Shown here: positions 5,792-57,567 of the stretch, piece after piece | Position numbering within the stretch: the stretch's first letter is position 1 | How the letters are laid out: the number at the start of each line of letters is the position of its first letter | DNA from: an uncultured Candidatus Saccharibacteria bacterium | GTDB lineage: Bacteria > Patescibacteriota > Minisyncoccia > Phycocordibacterales > UBA5272 | Direction: 5' to 3' | Length of the DNA stretch: 64,000 bases | NCBI GenBank assembly: GCA_964443675.1 | Contig: CAYUDN010000001.1 | Location: 10,862 to 74,861 of the forward strand | Position numbers and translations under genes: made by a program | The notes under the pieces: model-generated | Told to the model about the DNA's origin: nothing | What the model saw: only the letters and a program-made list of their open reading frames with translations | The model's database searches: none

Positions 5792-6706
5792 ATGAAGACA
5801 TCATCATACAGTATCGGTATTGTAACCTATCACGCTCGTTTTGAGTCGTATTTTATTCCTCTTATAAAAAATTTATCAAGAATTTTTCCGGATAAAGAAA
5901 TTATTTGTGTAATCAACGGTCACAGTGATAAGACTTTGCAGATTTCTTACTTGGATAAGGTGACAAAATTCATGAAGCAATATCCAAATGTAAGATACCT
6001 CACTTATGATGTCGGACAGTCTCTCTCGAAATGTTGGAATCAATTAATTATTTTGTCTCACACAGAGAAGACCGTCGTGCTTAGTGATGATGTTTTTATC
6101 GGTGATTTTTTTAGAGAGCAATTAGAAGAAAATATTTCTAAGTATGATTTTTTTGCGATTAATCGATCATTCGCCCACTTTGTTATTTCTAAAGATATTG
6201 TACGTAAAGTTGGGTGGTTTGAAGAAAGACTTCCAAGAATTGGTTGGGAAGATACTGACTACCAGTTTAGACTTTTTATGGAAAAGGTTCCGTATCCGAA
6301 TGTGAAGATTCTTGGTTCTCTTAATTTACACACAGATACAGAAGGTTCTGACTGGGTTAATGATCCAACAAAACCAAAGAGTAAATACACATACGCTAAT
6401 GAAGATTTCTTTAAAACTAAATGGGTAACCAAACATTATAATCCAGAAATAAAAGAATTTGATTACAGGGATGGTGATGATTACCATACCTTCTCCTTGC
6501 GAGAAGGTATGGAGACACCTTGTTTTTACGATCTTGAAGTGCTTAATTTTGATACTACAACTGAAGTAGCTGGTGTCTATGAAAAAGACTCAGCTCGTTA
6601 TTTTATTCAAAAGACACTCTTTTTACTCTCTGATTTTATTTTTACTAATTTACGTAAACTTAAGCGTTTTTTGAAGAAAATAAAAGAAACACACCACCCG
6701 ATTTAG
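5792..6706 (+). CDS. Putative glycosyltransferase (GT-A-like), family uncertain
   Basis: A 304-aa ORF divergent from the wzx operon. It has 'IGIVTYHARFESYFIPLIKN' and acidic 'WEDTDY'-type motifs but no strong family signature. Confidence 0.4.
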   Translation: MKTSSYSIGIVTYHARFESYFIPLIKNLSRIFPDKEIICVINGHSDKTLQISYLDKVTKFMKQYPNVRYLTYDVGQSLSKCWNQLIILSHTEKTVVLSDDVFIGDFFREQLEENISKYDFFAINRSFAHFVISKDIVRKVGWFEERLPRIGWEDTDYQFRLFMEKVPYPNVKILGSLNLHTDTEGSDWVNDPTKPKSKYTYANEDFFKTKWVTKHYNPEIKEFDYRDGDDYHTFSLREGMETPCFYDLEVLNFDTTTEVAGVYEKDSARYFIQKTLFLLSDFIFTNLRKLKRFLKKIKETHHPI

Positions 6707-6729
6707 TTTGTCATTTGAAGCAAAAGATA

Positions 6730-7626
6730 TTACTTTTTTTCCTCACCAGCTAACATTTTTTTGAGTGCTTTTTTGATAGTTGTTTTTGGTTTCCATCCGG
6801 GTACAAGAGAATCTTTGTTCCAAGGCTTCATTATTTCTTTATTTCGATAAGGTCTTCCACCCCACACAATAGGAAGCGATTTCTTTGTTACTGATTCATA
6901 GAGTTTTGCAAGTTCTTGCAGTGTCATTCGTTCCCCTGAGCTTACCAGATATGATTTTCCGTTATAAAGATAACCTTTTTTGGTGGTGAGAAGTTTTGCC
7001 ATGTGGATGTATGCATCTACAACATTCCCAACGTAGTTCATATCAAGTATCTGTTTTCCAGGAGACATAGGGAATGGTTCTTTTGTGTTACCGATAGAGG
7101 ACCAGAGATTAAAAATTTTTGGGCGGGTATCTCCTTCACCAAAAGTGTCGAAGAGTTTAAGAGTGACTAGTATAATATCAGATGATTCTCGGTAATAGGT
7201 TGCTATATCTTCAAAGGCTTGTTTTGTTGCAGAGTAAAGGTTGAAAGGGGAATAACGCTTATTGTTACAATGTTGTGTAAAAGTTCCAGTATTGATAAAC
7301 CACTTTGTCTTACTCTTTGTGGTTGCTTCAAGGAGTGTACTTGCAAATAATATATTGGACTGAATAAGAGGTTCTACATCTGTTTCTTTATGTGAAACAA
7401 GAAAAAGAGAGGCGAGGTGTATCACCCCGTCAAATTTTTCTGTATTCATAAACGTTATAAGAGAGCTAACCGAGGTGTACACATGCACTTTTTTTAGGGG
7501 AACAGGAAATTCTTTTTCTAGGGACGTTTCTCGAACAATGATATGTACAGCATTACCCTCTTCAACCAACTTCTTCACGAGATGTTTTCCTATAAAACCA
7601 GTAGCTCCACTAATAAGAATTTTCAT
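6730..7626 (-). CDS. CDP-3,6-dideoxyhexose synthase-like SDR reductase (RfbJ/RfbS family)
   Basis: 'MKILISGATGFIGKHLVKKL' Rossmann motif, 'IHLAS', and a YxxxK-containing core. Its length and blocks resemble the Salmonella RfbJ/RfbS reductases. Confidence 0.55.
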   Translation of the reverse strand: MKILISGATGFIGKHLVKKLVEEGNAVHIIVRETSLEKEFPVPLKKVHVYTSVSSLITFMNTEKFDGVIHLASLFLVSHKETDVEPLIQSNILFASTLLEATTKSKTKWFINTGTFTQHCNNKRYSPFNLYSATKQAFEDIATYYRESSDIILVTLKLFDTFGEGDTRPKIFNLWSSIGNTKEPFPMSPGKQILDMNYVGNVVDAYIHMAKLLTTKKGYLYNGKSYLVSSGERMTLQELAKLYESVTKKSLPIVWGGRPYRNKEIMKPWNKDSLVPGWKPKTTIKKALKKMLAGEEKK

Positions 7627-7632
7627 AGTCGA

Positions 7633-8169
7633 TCAAAAAGGAGAGTTAAACTTTGCAAAAGGAGGCAGAGTGAGGTCTTTTTCTGAAACAATATACTCGT
7701 TAAGTGTGATAGAGAGATCAAAAGAATCGACACGAATACCCGCGTCATGTTCTTTTGAAAACTGTCCTGATTGCAAGTAAAAGGTGCAAGTATTATCTTC
7801 ATGAGTGATAAAGCCGTGCGCGCATCCTTTTGGAATATAGACCATCTTTCCATTGCTTTGACTGAGTTCGACGGTTATATGTTTACCATATGTGGTAGAG
7901 TTTTTTCGTAGATCAAGAATAATGTCAGTAACAGACCCAGAAGAAACACCTATGATTTTGATGTGATCTTTTGGAGGAAGGTGAAAATGCATTCCCCGTA
8001 CTACGTTTTTTTGAGAAACAGAATAAAAACATTCCTCGATGGTAACCCCAAGGTCCATTTTTTCAAAAGCGTCTTTATTAAATGTTTTAACAAAAGTTCC
8101 TCGATGGTCTTTAAAAACAGTTGGTTCTAAAATAAAGACACCCGCTATTTCTGTTTCTGTTTGCTTCAT
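7633..8169 (-). CDS. RmlC-fold (cupin) sugar-nucleotide 3,5/5-epimerase
   Basis: A 178-aa ORF with 'FKDHRGTFVKTF' and 'RGMHFH' blocks, characteristic of dTDP-4-dehydrorhamnose 3,5-epimerase and AscE-type epimerases. Confidence 0.7.
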   Translation of the reverse strand: MKQTETEIAGVFILEPTVFKDHRGTFVKTFNKDAFEKMDLGVTIEECFYSVSQKNVVRGMHFHLPPKDHIKIIGVSSGSVTDIILDLRKNSTTYGKHITVELSQSNGKMVYIPKGCAHGFITHEDNTCTFYLQSGQFSKEHDAGIRVDSFDLSITLNEYIVSEKDLTLPPFAKFNSPF

Positions 8170-23215: not shown

Positions 23216-23671
23216 ATGGGTATGAAAATAGTTGTGGTTACTGTAGGTAAAGAAAAGGATGAAGCAAGTAAAGAACTGCTTAGCTACTATCAAGTGAAAT
23301 TACTCCGTTTCCTCCCCGTCGAGTGGGTGTATATTGAGCATGCTCACACCAAAGAAAAAGAGGCTGAAAAAATTCTCGAGTATATAAAGAAAGAAGACTA
23401 TGTAGTGCTTCTTGACGAAAAGGGGAAAGAGATGAAAAGTGAAATGGTGGCAGAGCTTATCGAGAATAGAATGGTGGACTCTGTAAGAAGAATGGTTTTT
23501 GTGATTGGTGGTGCATACGGTGTATCTGAAAAGGTGTTCGAAAGAGCAAATCATGTATGGAAACTTTCTTTGCTGGTATTCCCTCATATGCTTGTACGTG
23601 TCATTCTTATAGAGCAACTCTATCGCGCGATGACTATACTAAAAGGGGAGAAGTATCATCATGCCGAGTAG
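23216..23671 (+). CDS. rlmH: 23S rRNA (pseudouridine1915-N3)-methyltransferase RlmH (SPOUT)
   Basis: The 151-aa ORF has 'KIVVVTVGKEKD', 'VVLLDEKGKEMKSE' and 'FVIGGAYGVSEKV' blocks typical of RlmH. Confidence 0.85.
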   Translation: MGMKIVVVTVGKEKDEASKELLSYYQVKLLRFLPVEWVYIEHAHTKEKEAEKILEYIKKEDYVVLLDEKGKEMKSEMVAELIENRMVDSVRRMVFVIGGAYGVSEKVFERANHVWKLSLLVFPHMLVRVILIEQLYRAMTILKGEKYHHAE

Positions 23672-23878
23672 CTTGACTACGAAGATATTCGTAAACAGCT
23701 GTTGTAGGAGGTAAATAATTAACCTGAGATATTTTGTGGACTACGGGAACGAGGTTTGGAAATAAGTTGTGAGAGAGATTGAATGTTTGTATGAGATCTT
23801 AAAACAAAAACACGGTGAAGTGGGAAAATGAAAAGGCCGCCACATCGTGACAACCTTTTCGGTTGTTGATGGGCGACA

Positions 23879-24391
23879 CTAGTTGGTACGTGGCTTGTGA
23901 AGGCCTTCATACTGCAGACGAGGAAAAGGATACCGGCCAACAGACTTGGTTGCAACCCTGATGACTTGCTCGAAATTGCCGTCGGCAACCTGGGCTTCGT
24001 CGTAGAGCACTGTCGGGCCGAGCATTTCGATGAAGTCACCAAGGCGGACAACCAGTCTGTATTCGGCAGGCTTGCGCCAGAACCAGAAACCACGACCTTT
24101 GGCGGGATTGCGCCAGAACAGCAGTACTGCGCCCTCACCGATCTGGAAGCCATCCACACGCTCGTGCTCGCTAGAGCCGTCGTTGAACTGCTTTCGCACT
24201 TCCGTTTCGGTCAAGGTTCGCACCTGTTCCAAAGAGGCGAACTCATGACGAACTGTCAGGCCGGTAGCGTGACGAATCTCGATACCTTCCTCGTTGATGG
24301 TGATCTGAATCTCACCCATTGCAATTTTGGATTCATCTGTCGGTGAAAGACCTGTGAAGGTTCCAAAGTAACGCTGAATGCCGTGTTCCAT
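23879..24391 (-). CDS. Hypothetical protein (170 aa) on G+C-rich foreign-looking DNA
   Basis: The ATG at 24391 is preceded by a GGAG SD about 8 nt upstream. Codon third positions are strongly G/C-biased, unlike most genes in the window. It contains the tandem motif 'FWRNPAKGRGFWFWRKPAE'. No family was recognised. Overlapping opposite-strand ORFs (23897-24346, 23719-24159) are judged to be GC-driven artefacts. Confidence 0.5.
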   Translation of the reverse strand: MEHGIQRYFGTFTGLSPTDESKIAMGEIQITINEEGIEIRHATGLTVRHEFASLEQVRTLTETEVRKQFNDGSSEHERVDGFQIGEGAVLLFWRNPAKGRGFWFWRKPAEYRLVVRLGDFIEMLGPTVLYDEAQVADGNFEQVIRVATKSVGRYPFPRLQYEGLHKPRTN

Positions 24392-24460
24392 AGCTGATCT
24401 CCGTGTGTATAAAGAACAAAAGCATTATACAACATATATACTGTATTTGTCAATATATGT

Positions 24461-24481
24461 GGACAGTAGAGGATTCGACGA
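24461..24481 (-). repeat. Exact 20-21 nt copy of the tRNA-Val 3' end (att-like partial tRNA duplication)
   Basis: Plus strand gtggacagtagaggattcga is the reverse complement of TCGAATCCTCTACTGTCCAC, identical to the 3' T-arm and acceptor segment of the tRNA-Val at 24835-24906. No upstream tRNA body is present. Confidence 0.6.
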
Positions 24482-24658
24482 TTGTTAAGGGTTTTCTTTT
24501 TCGTGTTGCACACTCAAACAAAAACTCTTAACTTTCGCCTAAGCTTCGTCGCCACAACTTTTGATTACAAAAGTTGGCTTCGCTTGCGGCTCAGTTCGAA
24601 TCCTCTACATGTCGCACAAAACATAATCACCCGAAGCCTTCGCTTCAGGTTCATTGTT

Positions 24659-24680
24659 TTGTGGACAGTAGAGGTTCGGT
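24659..24680 (-). repeat. Degenerate copy of the tRNA-Val 3' end (att-like scar)
   Basis: Plus strand gtggacagtagaggttcggtcc matches the acceptor 3' strand exactly, but its T-loop is degraded (ACCGAAC in place of TTCGAAT). Confidence 0.4.
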
Positions 24681-24795
24681 CCCAAATCTGCCTCGCTTTG
24701 CCTGCCTAAAGGCAAGGCAGACTCGAAGCAGATTCCTGACCTGTATTCGAATCCTCACGAACATGAAGCAGTTCATGTTCTTACTATCCACGAAC

Positions 24796-24826
24796 AAAAA
24801 CGGCACGGATTACCGTGCTCATTTTT
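24796..24826. terminator. Bidirectional intrinsic terminator downstream of tRNA-Val
   Basis: aaaaa-cggcacgg-atta-ccgtgc-tcattttt: hairpin gcacgg/ccgtgc flanked by an A-run and a T-run. Confidence 0.6.
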
Positions 24827-24834
24827 GTACTCGT

Positions 24835-24906
24835 GGACAGTAGAGGATTCGAACCTCTGACATCTACAACGTCAATGTAGCGCTCTACCAACTGAGCTAA
24901 CCGTCC
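24835..24906 (-). tRNA. tRNA-Val (anticodon GAC)
   Basis: Manual fold of the reverse complement: acceptor GGACGGT/ACTGTCC, D-arm GCTC-AGTTGGTA-GAGC, anticodon stem CTACA/TGTAG with loop TTGACGT (GAC), T-arm AGAGG-TTCGAAT-CCTCT and discriminator A. Confidence 0.85.
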
Positions 24907-25016
24907 CTATGATCTACTAGTATACTATATAACACCAATTTTGAAAAAGTAAAATAATATGGTATTATATCGCGTACCGGTGATACTTTTTATTAAAAGG
25001 GTTTCACTATAAAGAC

Positions 25017-25091
25017 GGCCCCATCGTCTATCGGTTAGGACATCGGCTTTTCATGCCGGTAAGCGGAGTTCGACTCTCCGTAGGGTCACCA
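25017..25091 (+). tRNA. tRNA-Glu (anticodon UUC), CCA encoded
   Basis: Collinear with E. coli tRNA-Glu: acceptor GGCCCCA/TAGGGTC (one C-A mismatch, one G-U), D-stem GTCT/GGAC, anticodon stem TCGGC/GCCGG with loop TTTTCAT (TTC), T-arm CGGAG-TTCGACT-CTCCG and encoded CCA. Confidence 0.75.
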
Positions 25092-25212
25092 ACGAAGATT
25101 TATCTTCACCACATTCGGTTGTTTTTACGTTGTTATAACAACGTAAAAGTAGTTGCAATATTTGCGTCATTTTATCTGTTATTTCTCTGATATAACAGAT
25201 AATGTTAGATAA

Positions 25213-25260
25213 CAAAAAAGACCCCCGCTTCGCATGACAATGTCATTTGATTTGGGGGTC
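25213..25260 (-). terminator. Rho-independent terminator of the SPFH gene
   Basis: gaccccc...gggggtc stem with an internal atgacaatgtcat palindrome, followed on the minus strand by TTTTTTGTT. Confidence 0.6.
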
Positions 25261-25278
25261 TGACCAGCACTGGTCTGG

Positions 25279-26217
25279 TTACTTGAGAGGGACTGTCGCC
25301 GGCACAGCCAGTTCGCCGATGATGGCCGTGCAGTTGGCTTTCGCTCCGCACTTCTCCACCGCTTCGACTTGCTTCTTGGCAACTTCCAGCTTGAGGAACT
25401 GCTCCGGCGTAAAGCCGACGCTGTTGCGGTAGGCGTTGTCCGCATTGGCGCGTTCGGTTTCAGCGCCCTTGCGATTGATTTCCGCTTTCCGGCGCTCGTC
25501 TTCAGTCTTTGCACGCTGTTGTTGCGAAGCAGTTTCAGCGAGAGCTTCGAGAACCTTGCTGGGAGGAGTTGCTTTGCCGACGATGACTTCCATCACTTCG
25601 ACATCGATGCCCTTGGCCTTCACGAACTCGCGCATCTCGGTGAGAACGACACGCTGGATTTCTCCGAGAATGTCTTTCCCTTCCTTGTTGAGCTGGCGGG
25701 TTGTGAGGGCTGTCATCGGCGTCTTGGCCACTTCATCGCGCACCGAGGTACGAAACAGTTCCTTAAGGTTCTGCTTGTACCAGTCAGGGCCGAAAGACGC
25801 ATGCAGTTTCGGGGTCTTGCCGGGGATCGGCCGGACCTTGATGTATGCATTGAAGTCGATCGGGATGTTGTCGACGGTGATCGTGCCATCCTTGACGTCA
25901 TCGAACCCTTCCGTAAACTGGAAAGGGCGCGTGTCGTACATGACGACGTTCGTCGTGTAGAAGAGCCACTTCGAGCCGGTGACATGGGGTTCTTGACGAA
26001 CACCGCCGTCACCGAACATCGTGAAGAACGGCTTGTCGATGAGGACGGCCTCGTGACCGGCCTCGACTTGCACCCGTTGCGTGACCATCACCATGAAGGC
26101 GATGAACAGGACGAACGAGATTGCGCCGATGATGCGCTTCTTGTATTGAGTCCAGAAACTGAACTCGTTTTCATGGCCGTAGCTCATGGGATTTCCTTTC
26201 GTGGGTTGTGTTGTCAA
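25279..26217 (-). CDS. SPFH/band-7 (stomatin/prohibitin-like) membrane protein
   Basis: N-terminal TM helix (IIGAISFVLFIAFMVMV) followed by an SPFH-type domain and an Ala/Glu/Lys-rich coiled-coil tail. An AGGAA SD precedes the ATG at 26217. Strongly G+C-rich codon usage. The three +strand ORFs overlapping it are rejected as antisense artefacts. Confidence 0.75.
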   Translation of the reverse strand: MTTQPTKGNPMSYGHENEFSFWTQYKKRIIGAISFVLFIAFMVMVTQRVQVEAGHEAVLIDKPFFTMFGDGGVRQEPHVTGSKWLFYTTNVVMYDTRPFQFTEGFDDVKDGTITVDNIPIDFNAYIKVRPIPGKTPKLHASFGPDWYKQNLKELFRTSVRDEVAKTPMTALTTRQLNKEGKDILGEIQRVVLTEMREFVKAKGIDVEVMEVIVGKATPPSKVLEALAETASQQQRAKTEDERRKAEINRKGAETERANADNAYRNSVGFTPEQFLKLEVAKKQVEAVEKCGAKANCTAIIGELAVPATVPLK

Positions 26218-26584
26218 AAAAACAGAAAATGTATCAGGAACATATATATCATATTATGATTATTATATTTTGTCAAGGCCGAAATTTTGCTTGATTTTAC
26301 TCACTAATACATAGTTCTATACCAGATACGGTATATAAACTAGAAGAGTTTTTGATGGTTTTTCTATGGAAAGATTGTAAAATATAGATATTATTCATAA
26401 TTAGTTAGTGCTAAAAGTCGATTTGGATACTTATTGAAAACTGTTTTCCATTTTATAATCTCATTTTCAATGGTGTTCCACCCTAGATAGTACTGGCTCA
26501 CCTTCAACAGCTAGCACTAGAAGGGTGCTTAAAGTAGTAAAAACAGTGTCTAAAAAACGCTGTTTTTACTATGCTTTTTTACCT

Positions 26585-26688: not shown

Positions 26689-27582
26689 ATGAACGGGATT
26701 ACTCAAGTCGTTCCTGCAACCGCAGGTCAACTCAAGCAGATCAATCGCATCATCGCTGATGCCGTCGAAAAGATCGTAACTGAACTCGGTCTCGACAAGG
26801 ACGGTGCACAGCGGGTCATCGAACATGGTGACGAACTCGTTGGCAACATCGGCGAGGTCACCCTGGCGACGCTCAAGGACTTGTCGGTCTCCGACAAGTA
26901 CAAGGACGAAGAAGTGAAGTCGAACTACGGCTACCTGTCGGGCTACAAGAAGCCGAAGGGTATCACTGAGCAGACCAACATCCTCCGTCAGCTGTTCCCT
27001 GGCATCGGCTTCGCTGACGAAAAGCTCGTCGAGCATGAAGTACCGAAGAATGCCGACGGATGGTTCGCCATTCCGAAGTGGCAGTCGCTCGCACCGACCT
27101 ATGGTGAAGCGGTGGAACTGGTGCTGAAGAAGCTGAGCGAAACCCGCAACGGTCGTTTCCAAAACTACCGTGAAAGCGAACTCGGTCCTGATCAGCTCCG
27201 CCAATCGGCGAAAACGGCAAGCGTGTTCCAGGAGCTCGCCGAAGAGCAGAACGGCTACGACATCCTCGTGGTCGCAGCCCAATTTGGTCTGCGTCACCGT
27301 GGTCGCTCAGTTCGCCGTGTGCGTGAGATCCTGCTCGGCAACGAGTTCGGACTCGGAGCGTTTGCTGTCGGCATCATGCTCCTCACCCACCCTGAACGAC
27401 TTGCCCACTACGACGATCTCTGGATCGACTGTGCTGGTGACGAGTTCGCTCCGGATGCGGATGGCGACTTCTGGAGGTCTCCGATCTTCATCTTCAGTGG
27501 CGTCAGGCTCAGGTTCGGCACCGACGGTGTGTCGGATGCGGACGGCTGCTGCGGTTCCGTCTCGGGGTTTCTTCCGCTGTGA
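26689..27582 (+). CDS. Hypothetical protein (297 aa), G+C-rich, unknown family
   Basis: A strong SD (caAGGAGAgataaccc) precedes the ATG. G/C-biased third positions. Acidic Gly/Asp-rich C-terminus. No motif was recognised. Confidence 0.55.
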   Translation: MNGITQVVPATAGQLKQINRIIADAVEKIVTELGLDKDGAQRVIEHGDELVGNIGEVTLATLKDLSVSDKYKDEEVKSNYGYLSGYKKPKGITEQTNILRQLFPGIGFADEKLVEHEVPKNADGWFAIPKWQSLAPTYGEAVELVLKKLSETRNGRFQNYRESELGPDQLRQSAKTASVFQELAEEQNGYDILVVAAQFGLRHRGRSVRRVREILLGNEFGLGAFAVGIMLLTHPERLAHYDDLWIDCAGDEFAPDADGDFWRSPIFIFSGVRLRFGTDGVSDADGCCGSVSGFLPL

Positions 27583-56358: not shown

Positions 56359-56693
56359 CAGAAGTATCCTTTCAAAAAAAGTTGAAGAACAGTGTGAGAC
56401 CCTTCTGTCTCACAGGTATTAGTATAGCACGGGTAGTGTGATTGTGGAAGGTGAAAGGTGGGCCACTTCGCTTGTAGAGAGTGGAAGGGAGGGAAGAATG
56501 AAGAGTGAAAAGGAAAACAAAAAACCGCGGCGACTCCCGTCGTAGCGGCTTCCTGATCAAGTTGTCTTTTTTTGACTTCGTACACACGCTGTGTACCAAG
56601 AGTCTTGATCGCGGAGTTGCGAGCTCCTACTCTTGTGACCTTCTCAGGTCTCTAGATCTTCAACTCAAGGGTTTCTCCTTGTTGAGGTTTTTC

Positions 56694-56861
56694 TTACCGT
56701 TGCCAGGGGGCAGCGGCTTGAGGGCGGCGGGGGATGAACTTCTGCCGGATGGTCTTCGACCGCGCAGTGTGGGTCTTCCGCAGCGCATCGAAGCGTTCCC
56801 GCTTCTTACGCCGCTCCTCTTCTGCGAAGAACTCGCAGAAAGTCTTGTCCCAGTCGGTCAA
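56694..56861 (-). CDS. Small Arg/Lys-rich protein (55 aa), TTG start, translationally coupled to the upstream gene
   Basis: The upstream gene's TAA stop is embedded in an SD (cTAAGGAGAacca), followed by TTG. Frame: (M)TDWDKTFCEFFAEEERRKKRERFDALRKTHTARSKTIRQKFIPRRPQAAAPWQR. G+C-rich. Not in the ORF track. Confidence 0.35.
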   Translation of the reverse strand: MTDWDKTFCEFFAEEERRKKRERFDALRKTHTARSKTIRQKFIPRRPQAAAPWQR

Positions 56862-56870
56862 TGGTTCTCC

Positions 56871-57476
56871 TTAGATGAGTTGTCCCATGAAGTAGAGAGG
56901 GGTCTTGTCGACCGCGCGGAATTGCGAGGAGCGAATGTCCTTATAGCGAGGCATCCGCGGGTCACGCTTTTGCATGCTCTTGTTGTGGTGACCCTTGCAC
57001 TCCAGGACTGTGGTTTGTTCACCGGTATTCGACCGGTAAACCAGCACAGGTTGTCGCTTGCCGATACCTGTGCGACGGTTGAGGTGCAAGCGGCGGCTAC
57101 CACTCCGGTCCTTGTCCTTCTCATTGAAGGTCTCCCGCTCGAACGAACCGGCAGTAGGCTGCCACAAGTCGTGGTCGAAGTGCCACAGTTGCTCGCGGAT
57201 CTTGTTGATCCGCTTGCGCTCTTCGGCGCGGGCGTGCGCGGCAGCGATCTTCTGGTTGATCTCGGCGCGACGCGCCTCGACCAGGGCCTGGTTGTCGGCG
57301 AGCCAGTCATCCATCGAAACCACGACATCTTTCCGCTGGACACGGTAGGCGAGCCAGCCAGGGCCGGATGCCAAGGAAGTCTTCGGCGCCTTCTGTTCCA
57401 TCATCATCCCGACGAAGCCGGGAACGAAGTCGAACGAAACGCGCGGAGAAACTTGTTCCGAAAAAGTCGCAAACAT
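56871..57476 (-). CDS. Hypothetical protein (201 aa) on a G+C-rich islet
   Basis: A perfect SD (tAAGGAGGgtttgaATG) precedes the ATG. G/C-biased codons. The longer +strand ORF 56505-57491 and the nested minus-strand ORF are rejected as GC artefacts. Confidence 0.55.
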   Translation of the reverse strand: MFATFSEQVSPRVSFDFVPGFVGMMMEQKAPKTSLASGPGWLAYRVQRKDVVVSMDDWLADNQALVEARRAEINQKIAAAHARAEERKRINKIREQLWHFDHDLWQPTAGSFERETFNEKDKDRSGSRRLHLNRRTGIGKRQPVLVYRSNTGEQTTVLECKGHHNKSMQKRDPRMPRYKDIRSSQFRAVDKTPLYFMGQLI

Positions 57477-57567
57477 TCAAACCCTCCTTAGGGTATTGCG
57501 TTGAAAGAAATTTGAGAGATCTAATACAACGAACTCTTAGGTATAAGCATAGCATATCTTAGTATTT

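Follow-up and report, generated by a model that had tools for sequence, protein, structure and literature searches.

Why should the 3′ end of one tRNA gene recur several times within about a kilobase, beside a gene whose composition is unlike that of its surroundings? The question is raised by a stretch of 64,000 nucleotides (nt) from an uncultured Candidatus Saccharibacteria bacterium (contig CAYUDN010000001.1, positions 10,862 to 74,861; 40.4% G+C over the 64 kb), here called the window, in which copies of the end of a tRNA-Val gene lie between that gene and rlmH. An earlier reading of the letters (the original prediction) had taken the copies for att-like scars of tRNA-targeted integration, left by successive integration and excision events or by a decayed element. 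We propose that three integrase-less units have been stacked at the 3′ end of tRNA-Val by site-specific recombination, with the recombinase encoded elsewhere, and we put the probability of this reading at roughly 55%. It draws on the borders of the units, their presence and absence among relatives, the recurrence of the gene cassette behind other tRNA-type ends, a hybrid border site, and arrays of the same kind in other loci, all of which are observed.

The anchor gene, its neighbour, the copies of the tRNA end (O1 to O4) and the units between them are as follows.

25017-25091, divergent to tRNA-Val: tRNA-Glu(TTC) (ARAGORN, Rfam)
24833-24906 by ARAGORN, 24834-24906 by Rfam tRNA (69.7 bits), minus strand: tRNA-Val(GAC), the anchor gene
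24833-24853, minus strand: O1, the final 20-21 nt of tRNA-Val
24661-24832: unit 1, non-coding
24661-24680, minus strand: O2, degenerate direct copy of the tRNA end (16 of 20), distal border of unit 1 (repeat search)
24459-24660: unit 2, non-coding
24459-24478, minus strand: O3, exact 20-nt direct copy of the tRNA end, distal border of unit 2, adjoining the promoter of the cassette
23746-24458: unit 3, gene cassette with promoter, open reading frame (ORF), terminator and hybrid border site
23736-23761, minus strand: O4, hybrid border site and fourth copy, beside rlmH; TTCCAAACCTCGTTCC followed directly by CGTAGTCCAC (minus strand)

O1, O2 and O3 share one orientation, and the extra copies lie 3′ of tRNA-Val. 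The 20-mer GTGGACAGTAGAGGATTCGA (plus strand), which spans the complement of T-loop position 55 to the base past the discriminator, has two exact occurrences in the 64 kb, one at the tRNA end (24833-24852) and one at 24459-24478. The chance expectation is zero, as none of 100 shuffles contained a match even with three mismatches tolerated. O2 retains 13 contiguous matching bases at 24662-24674. The original prediction was thus right that exact and degenerate copies follow the gene in the same orientation; its positions (24461-24481, 24659-24680, and 24835 for the gene) were about 2 nt off, and it had missed both O4 and the inverted copies described below.

One might suppose that the extra copies are additional or degenerate tRNA genes of a former cluster. 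Unit 1, on the tRNA-sense strand, can be drawn as an acceptor-like stem, a hairpin and a T-arm-like stem with a large insertion, and one of the compared loci, L033, carries a pseudo-tRNA-Val with a hairpin at its T-loop. ARAGORN and Rfam find just two intact tRNAs, tRNA-Val and tRNA-Glu, and no further tRNA or Rfam family in 23600-25300 even at E≤10, so that bona fide tRNA genes, which the original prediction had named as the outcome that would speak against it, were not found. Furthermore, what would be the acceptor 5′ strand is not copied from a tRNA 5′ end: it complements the 3′ end exactly, discriminator included, and units of the Ala type carry an A opposite U70 in that strand. We consider this explanation hardly credible. 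The pseudogene in L033 (~960-1095) extends from the D-stem to the T-stem, with a perfect hairpin of ~60 nt inserted at the T-loop; on one side of it is an intact tRNA-Val, on the other a homologue (38% identity) of the protein encoded in unit 3 that has a signal peptide.

Unit 3 is made up of the following parts.

24424-24453, minus strand: promoter TTGACA-18 nt-TATAAT, matching the sigma-70 consensus at 12 of 12 positions (promoter scan)
24398-24402, minus strand: ribosome binding site GGAGA
23879-24391, minus strand: cargo ORF of 170 aa, 54% G+C (window 40.4%)
23820-23877, minus strand: terminator, a long hairpin GTCGCC...GGCGGC with a T-run (from the sequence)

The promoter starts 5 nt past O3. 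The cargo gene, described in the original prediction as G+C-rich and unlike the host background, does differ from it to that degree and recurs behind other tRNA-type ends and tmRNA genes. The 170-aa protein has no match in Pfam, PHROG or PADLOC. A word-indexed search returned 24 homologues, all unnamed, and a profile search of 1.84 billion representatives returned 220 clusters, many with an N-terminal extension. The fold is predicted to be a small beta-barrel. The gene is a passenger and not a recombinase.

The cassette occurs as a block behind several different anchors. Over 711 nt, positions 24455-23746 of the window share 80% identity with L023 4939-5640, a segment behind tRNA-Ala(TGC), and the block is 84-88% identical to L054 and to L052/L053. 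Ends of the tRNA-Ala type (...CTAGGGTCCAC) stand directly upstream of the promoter in L053 and L054, while L052 is cut to GGGTCCAC. Protein homologues at 53-60% identity are found downstream of tmRNA (L024, with several copies of the tmRNA end; L025-27; L030) and behind tRNA-Ala(GGC) (L031) and tRNA-Tyr (L029, L032), and those below 38% identity are mostly without a nearby tRNA. The junction of tRNA end, short A/T-rich stretch and TTGACA also exists in L023, L024, L029, L031, L032, L053 and L054, and the same terminator follows the gene in L023, L024, L025, L029, L031, L052 and L054. At least seven assemblies end 75-150 nt upstream of the cargo gene, as is expected at a multi-copy repeat.

Homology between the cassettes of the window and of L023 begins 3-5 nt past O3 and stops inside O4, the far end of which is 64 nt from the rlmH stop codon. 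In the alignment, O4 shares its left 16 nt (TTCCAAACCTCGTTCC) exactly with the site behind the L023 cassette, and the last ~10 nt vary by locus, with CGTAGTCCAC in the window and ATAGGGGTCAAC in L023. As the left part is shared and the distal part is locus-specific, this is the pattern expected for a hybrid recombination site.

An inverted repeat lies within each cassette promoter (24424-24453 in the window; L023, L029, L031 and L032), placed between the -35 and -10 hexamers or extending across them, in L029 for example with the form AATACACTA-TTTT-TAGTGTATT. Such a repeat could be an operator or a piece of a recombination site.

Which of these units vary among relatives can be judged from two related loci, L004 and L005, whose RlmH proteins are 87% and 68% identical, respectively, to that of the window. 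In L004, the gap of ~257 bp between rlmH and tRNA-Val contains a terminator and one non-coding unit but no gene, and L005 has two non-coding units and an unrelated gene of low G+C content. Unit 1 and the gene cassette are both absent from these two loci. In BLASTN, window positions 24674-24543 (O2 and the start of unit 2) align to the tRNA end and first unit of L004 and L005, which makes unit 1 (24661-24832) an additional insertion, placed precisely at the tRNA end and duplicating it. Conservation of the region in all relatives had been named in the original prediction as an argument against integration; its content is, in fact, present in some relatives and absent from others.

Longer arrays of the same kind exist elsewhere. 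In L029, a contig of 360 kb, nine junctions resembling tRNA ends lie downstream of tRNA-Tyr, each ending in ...GCGCAC or a close variant. Six are directly followed by a near-identical promoter (ACTTGACAATACACTAT..TAGTGTATTGT) and the other three by hairpins. All genes point the same way and are single ORFans with terminators; the beta-barrel gene is one cassette among them, and there is one non-coding unit, which is of the type of unit 1 in the window. L031 has, in this order, tRNA-Ala, a cassette for a 75-aa protein, a site, a non-coding unit, a site, the beta-barrel cassette, a site, and a second copy of the non-coding unit. In L024, the beta-barrel cassette and one for an 87-aa protein lie between copies of the tmRNA end, and these copies share a further ~12 nt of left flank. 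None of 20 array genes matches Pfam at the gathering score, with three weak matches below the threshold. The border regions of gene cassettes fold like shuffled sequences (z between -0.07 and +1.2) while non-coding units do fold (z of -3.3 and -5.8). A loose regular expression for a tRNA end followed by TTGACA, applied to all loci, matched no more often than in shuffled sequences; the pattern was overly permissive and failed to pick up the sites of L029.

These arrays bear on the view, close to that of the original prediction, that the copies are dead attL/attR scars from the integration and excision, or from the decay, of classical islands or prophages that carried an integrase, and that the DNA between them is junk. 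Such elements are classically recognised by a duplicated tRNA 3′ end, two of the copies (O2 and O4) are degenerate, and the tycheposons of Prochlorococcus display stacked integrations together with scattered partial tRNAs (10.1101/2020.12.28.424599). In L005, moreover, an ORF of 575 aa that resembles a serine recombinase by eye abuts tRNA-Glu. Decay is not what the units look like, however: they are compact and intact, with the 12/12 promoter, the border site and the conserved ORF and terminator all in place. One and the same single-gene block, with unchanged borders, is found behind different anchors, L029 is a regular array of single genes with near-identical promoters abutting the sites, and integrase fragments were found in no array. 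Nor would decay be expected to leave non-coding units that are conserved between species and agree with their anchor at 15-21 of 21 positions (19-21 in nine of ten units, see below). The direct copies thus do act as att-type borders of foreign insertions, as had been predicted, but the description as remnants of a decayed element is not borne out, since the organisation recurs, including in the array with nine junctions. We regard dead scars as an unlikely explanation.

The serine-recombinase-like ORF of L005 (8494-10221, minus strand), judged by eye alone to resemble the large enzymes of this kind, extends into the 3′ end of tRNA-Glu, with phage-like ORFs after it. As it reads as a large serine recombinase at the neighbouring tRNA-Glu, integrase-bearing elements probably visit this locus.

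The anatomy of the two non-coding units goes beyond that of att sites.

24800-24822 (hairpin 24803-24818): T1, bidirectional intrinsic terminator with A-run, G+C-rich hairpin of 6-7 bp and T-run (terminator scan, both strands)
24780-24791, minus strand: first half of the inverted copy in unit 1, GTGGATAGTAAG (minus strand), complement of the acceptor 3′ strand and discriminator of tRNA-Val
24760-24779, minus strand: P2, hairpin of 20 nt that splits the inverted copy (folds)
24746-24758, minus strand: second half of the inverted copy, GTGAGGATTCGAA (minus strand), complement of the T-stem 3′ strand and T-loop (repeat search)
24678-24741, minus strand: long imperfect hairpin from the inverted copy to O2 (repeat search, folds)
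24629-24650, minus strand: T2, terminator-like hairpin with A-rich and T-rich flanks (terminator scan, fold)
24594-24617, minus strand: second inverted copy, GTTCGAATCCTCTACATGTCGCAC (plus strand), with 15 exact bases and an acceptor part with two 1-nt insertions (19 of 21)
~24484-24531 and 24555-24576, minus strand: two hairpins of unit 2 (folds)

In both units, a terminator hairpin is followed by an inverted tRNA end, more hairpins and a direct copy. Read on the minus strand, the order is tRNA-Val with O1, T1, first inverted half, P2, second inverted half, long hairpin, O2, T2, contiguous inverted copy, two hairpins, O3, promoter, ribosome binding site, ORF, terminator, O4 and rlmH, so that direct and inverted copies of the tRNA end alternate, with a hairpin between each neighbouring pair. 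T1 is the centre of a palindrome made by O1 and the first inverted half-copy, and T2 that of a palindrome made by O2 and the second inverted copy. The two halves in unit 1 together match the reverse complement of the local tRNA end at 19 of 21 positions. When folded as DNA, 24659-24795 has a z-score of -5.8, and the 381-nt stretch 24455-24835 reaches, against shuffles, z = -16 when folded as the tRNA-sense strand and z = -12 as its complement. The hairpin-rich non-coding DNA with a terminator of the original prediction is thus real, with a T-run on either strand of the hairpin at 24803-24818 and a strong fold; it belongs to an organised family of units that carry inverted local tRNA ends, a feature not expected from simple attL/attR duplication.

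Units of the same design occur behind tRNA-Val (window, L004, L005, L060), tRNA-Glu (L056), tRNA-Ala (L023, L031) and tRNA-Tyr (L029, L032), and L007 has a degenerate one behind tRNA-Val(TAC). They start with an A-run, a hairpin and a T-run, continue with the inverted anchor end and hairpins, and finish with the direct copy; the inverted end is usually split by a hairpin at the junction of acceptor and T-stem. A homologue of T1 is found at the start of the non-coding units of L029 and L031, a hairpin at the position of P2 is present in five aligned units with compensatory changes, and the hairpin of unit 2 at 24555-24576 covaries with its counterparts in L004 and L005. An automatic alignment and consensus fold of five units recovered only the terminator and the interrupting hairpin, as the 3′ parts misalign.

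The inverted copies are matched to the anchor beside them. We scored ten units against the reverse complement of the last 21 nt of their own anchor, skipping one segment of 14-33 nt. The match is 15-21 of 21, with 19-21 in nine units and 15 in L060, and non-cognate anchors score 7-17 under the same scheme. The orthologous units of the window and of L004 each follow the acceptor of their own tRNA-Val (ACTGTCC versus ATCGCCC), and the unit of L004 contains a 19-nt inverted copy of its own tRNA-Val end. The unit of L056, behind tRNA-Glu, aligns over its full length with that of L060, behind tRNA-Val, at 72.5% identity, with the anchor-derived parts replaced. A separate test for an inverted copy past the terminator was significant at four of five anchors with an adjacent non-coding unit, namely Val (L004, L005), Ala (L023) and Tyr (L032); the split copy of the window is not significant in this test (p = 0.12) and is detected only when the hairpin is skipped. 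No such copy follows the terminators of the Glu (window, L005), Leu, His, Trp, Pro and Gly tRNAs of the same loci.

A purely mutational origin of these structures has to be considered. Fold-back or template-switch synthesis, as in the correction of quasi-palindromes, could have grown the terminator hairpins beside tRNA genes into palindromes and kept the copies matched, all without recombination, and the resulting structures may act on RNA or DNA, for instance as insulating terminators or in the trapping of read-through. The alternating, hairpin-separated succession of O1, T1, inverted copy, long hairpin, O2, T2, inverted copy, hairpins and O3 agrees with this, as does the match of inverted copies to the local tRNA in every case, even between the orthologues of the window and L004. 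The greater fold stability of the tRNA-sense strand in seven of eight loci also fits, although the asymmetry due to G-U pairs is modest. Such a process leaves the gene cassette, its recurrence behind other anchors and O4 unaccounted for, and terminator-bearing tRNAs without arrays have no inverted copy. The interrupting hairpin sits at the same position of the inverted copy behind Val, Glu, Ala and Tyr anchors, which argues for a conserved design and not for repeated accidents. We find this origin of the non-coding repeats doubtful. The match between inverted copy and local tRNA may be upheld by selection, or by hairpin-templated correction inside the palindrome that the tRNA end, the terminator and the inverted copy form. 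Further candidate explanations of the inverted copies are a guide-like role and a symmetric site with the palindromic T-loop motif TTCGAA at its centre.

Short sites GGTCACC/GTGACC, which correspond to the 3′-terminal bases of tRNA-Glu or their complement, lie inside units on the Val side, beside T-arm sequence of the Val type (L004 ~6470-6490; L005 ~7735-7750 and ~7905-7925; window 24676-24683). These may be hybrid Glu/Val sites, and perhaps footprints of inversions between the two anchors.

According to the reading that we prefer, that of stacked units without an integrase, a unit would enter at the 3′ end of the tRNA by site-specific recombination, regenerate the tRNA by its insertion and shift older units outward, and the enzyme would be supplied in trans, from elsewhere in the genome or from a helper element. 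That no integrase is present in the window had been stated in the original prediction, and none was found: Pfam searches of the ORFs around the locus and of other ORFs of the window gave no recombinase, nor did inspection of the first 70 residues of the remaining ORFs. As no recombinase was found in the window or beside the arrays and the crossover point cannot be fixed, the mechanism, including the recombinase, its type and the point of crossover, is what we infer.

Several points weigh against this reading. No recombinase was found beside any array in the window and 62 loci, only some of which were scanned for domains. The cassette has no relatives in the viral, phage and plasmid collections IMG/VR, INPHARED and PLSDB, the result on which a phage or plasmid vector for it was rejected as a candidate. 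The copy in front of a cassette promoter is always of the local type, which would not be predicted from a simple exchange at a fixed point between arrays with different anchors. Gene-cassette borders show no folding (z about 0 to +1.2), and a folded site of the integron type is thus not general. The right half of O4 resembles tRNA-Val weakly (about 10 of 12 positions with two gaps), and the end of tRNA-Ala is equally close. Inverted copies that match the anchor and are interrupted by a hairpin are foreign to classical att recombination. Finally, every comparison is with metagenomic contigs, most of them unclassified.

Is this, then, a known kind of system? In Prochlorococcus, tycheposons insert at tRNA 3′ ends and are flanked by partial tRNAs, newcomers push older elements outward, and foreign islands thus arise in a streamlined genome (10.1101/2020.12.28.424599). 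Like these and other tRNA-targeted elements, the units are insertions into tRNA or tmRNA genes at their 3′ ends, with the gene regenerated (the tRNA-Val is intact, at 69.7 bits); they are flanked by direct repeats of the tRNA 3′ part (the exact 20-mer, the 16/20 copy and the hybrid O4), differ in presence among relatives and are of atypical composition (54% versus 40% G+C). They differ in that no integrase or hallmark gene was found in or near the units, which measure 170-720 bp and have one gene or none. In addition, gene units have their own near-consensus promoter abutting the site, and non-coding units have an anchor-matched inverted copy.

Integrons, with their integrase IntI, docking site attI and cassettes with attC sites, offer another parallel. 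L029 resembles them in being a co-directional array of mostly single-gene ORFans at one docking site, and the window does so only in part, with one gene cassette and two non-coding units; border sites are diverse except at their ends, and the same cassette occurs in different arrays. Unlike in integrons, the docking site is a tRNA end, and no intI was found beside it in the window or beside the anchors of L023-L032. The cassettes have their own promoters and terminators (12/12 in the window, near-identical in L029) in place of a common cassette promoter Pc. Folded sites of the attC type were considered for gene cassettes and rejected, as the z-score of the borders is about 0.

Cis-mobilizable elements (CIMEs) of Streptococcus are att-flanked derivatives of integrative and conjugative elements that lack an integrase, are of kilobase scale and need the enzyme of another element. 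The units share with them att sites on both sides and the lack of recombination or transfer genes, but they belong to a recurrent family of minimal units, for which the viral, phage and plasmid collections yielded no parental element. Integrative mobile elements exploiting Xer (IMEX, such as the CTX phage) and the pdif modules of Acinetobacter plasmids are mobile without a recombinase of their own, using that of the host, and they stack in tandem; in CTX, two inverted target-like sites make up the attP once the single-stranded DNA is folded. By analogy, this pairing recalls the direct and inverted copies found here. In contrast to Xer-dependent modules, the target is a tRNA 3′ end and not dif; by eye, with no formal test run, it does not resemble the consensus of dif, a 28-bp XerC/D site, and no 11-6-11 arrangement of the XerC/D type is evident. 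Quasi-palindrome correction, or arm-to-arm conversion of palindromes, is a mutational process and not an element. It would keep the inverted copy identical to the tRNA end across the terminator hairpin, but it accounts neither for the cassettes nor for the conserved interrupting hairpin. In summary, the locus works like tRNA islands, integrons, CIMEs and Xer modules without belonging to any of them, because an integrase of its own, an intI, attC folding and promoterless cassettes were not found.

The tRNA-Glu side of the tRNA pair has features of its own. A G+C-rich block with an SPFH/Band_7 gene 3′ of tRNA-Glu (window 25118-26276) is 90% identical to L056 5612-6765, while the core genes around it (tsaD, rlmH) are only 72-75% identical; it looks like a second, recently exchanged foreign block. 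In L056 and L057, which have identical RlmH and are the same sequence, the tRNA-Val/tRNA-Glu pair and the SPFH block are inverted relative to rlmH as compared with window 23216-26276, the order being rlmH, SPFH, tRNA-Glu (minus) and tRNA-Val (plus). Between tRNA-Glu and the SPFH block, L056 has a complete unit (7040-7297, minus strand) with terminator, split inverted copy of the Glu type, hairpins and direct copy, the counterpart of which in the window is 26 nt. A perfect 13+13 palindrome (25123-25148) and a 14+14 near-palindrome (25172-25202) lie 3′ of tRNA-Glu in the window, and similar 'TTGTTATAACAA' palindromes are found in L056 at ~6690-6830. Upstream of its intact tRNA-Glu, L004 carries at 6831-6882 a second, diverged and partial version of the 5′ part of that gene, followed by an insert of ~130 nt.

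Two further compositional islets were seen in the window. An ORF for a 297-aa protein (26689-27582, plus strand; 58% G+C, promoter TTGACT-17-TATTAT) lies in a spacer of 30% G+C and has no match in Pfam, PHROG or PADLOC; shuffling of cargo across the two sides of the tRNA pair was rejected, as this protein and a 297-aa protein of L060 are unrelated. The other islet, at 56500-57500, reaches 62% G+C and contains a plausible ORF (56871-57476, minus strand, 201 aa).

Patescibacteria have tiny genomes with few recognised mobile elements, and how they acquire strain-specific genes is poorly understood. In Saccharibacteria, natural transformation has been reported. We tentatively raise the possibility, to which we give less weight than to the stacking of units at this locus, of an undescribed gene-capture platform in Saccharibacteria and related Patescibacteria: tRNA and tmRNA 3′ ends would dock mobile, self-promoted cassettes without a recombinase as well as anchor-matched palindromic non-coding units, with the enzyme acting in trans, a site-specific recombinase or perhaps one guided by RNA or by structure. 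A search that covered part of the literature found no description of such arrays in Saccharibacteria or in the candidate phyla radiation. The anchor-matched inverted copies raise a separate question, namely what holds an antisense tRNA end that is interrupted by a hairpin identical to its neighbour across species. If the proposal is true, genes would move among these epibionts by a compact route, in which minimal, promoter-equipped cassettes dock at tRNA and tmRNA ends with no recombinase linked to them, and the platform would provide a ready insertion site and an expression-cassette design for the genetics of Saccharibacteria.

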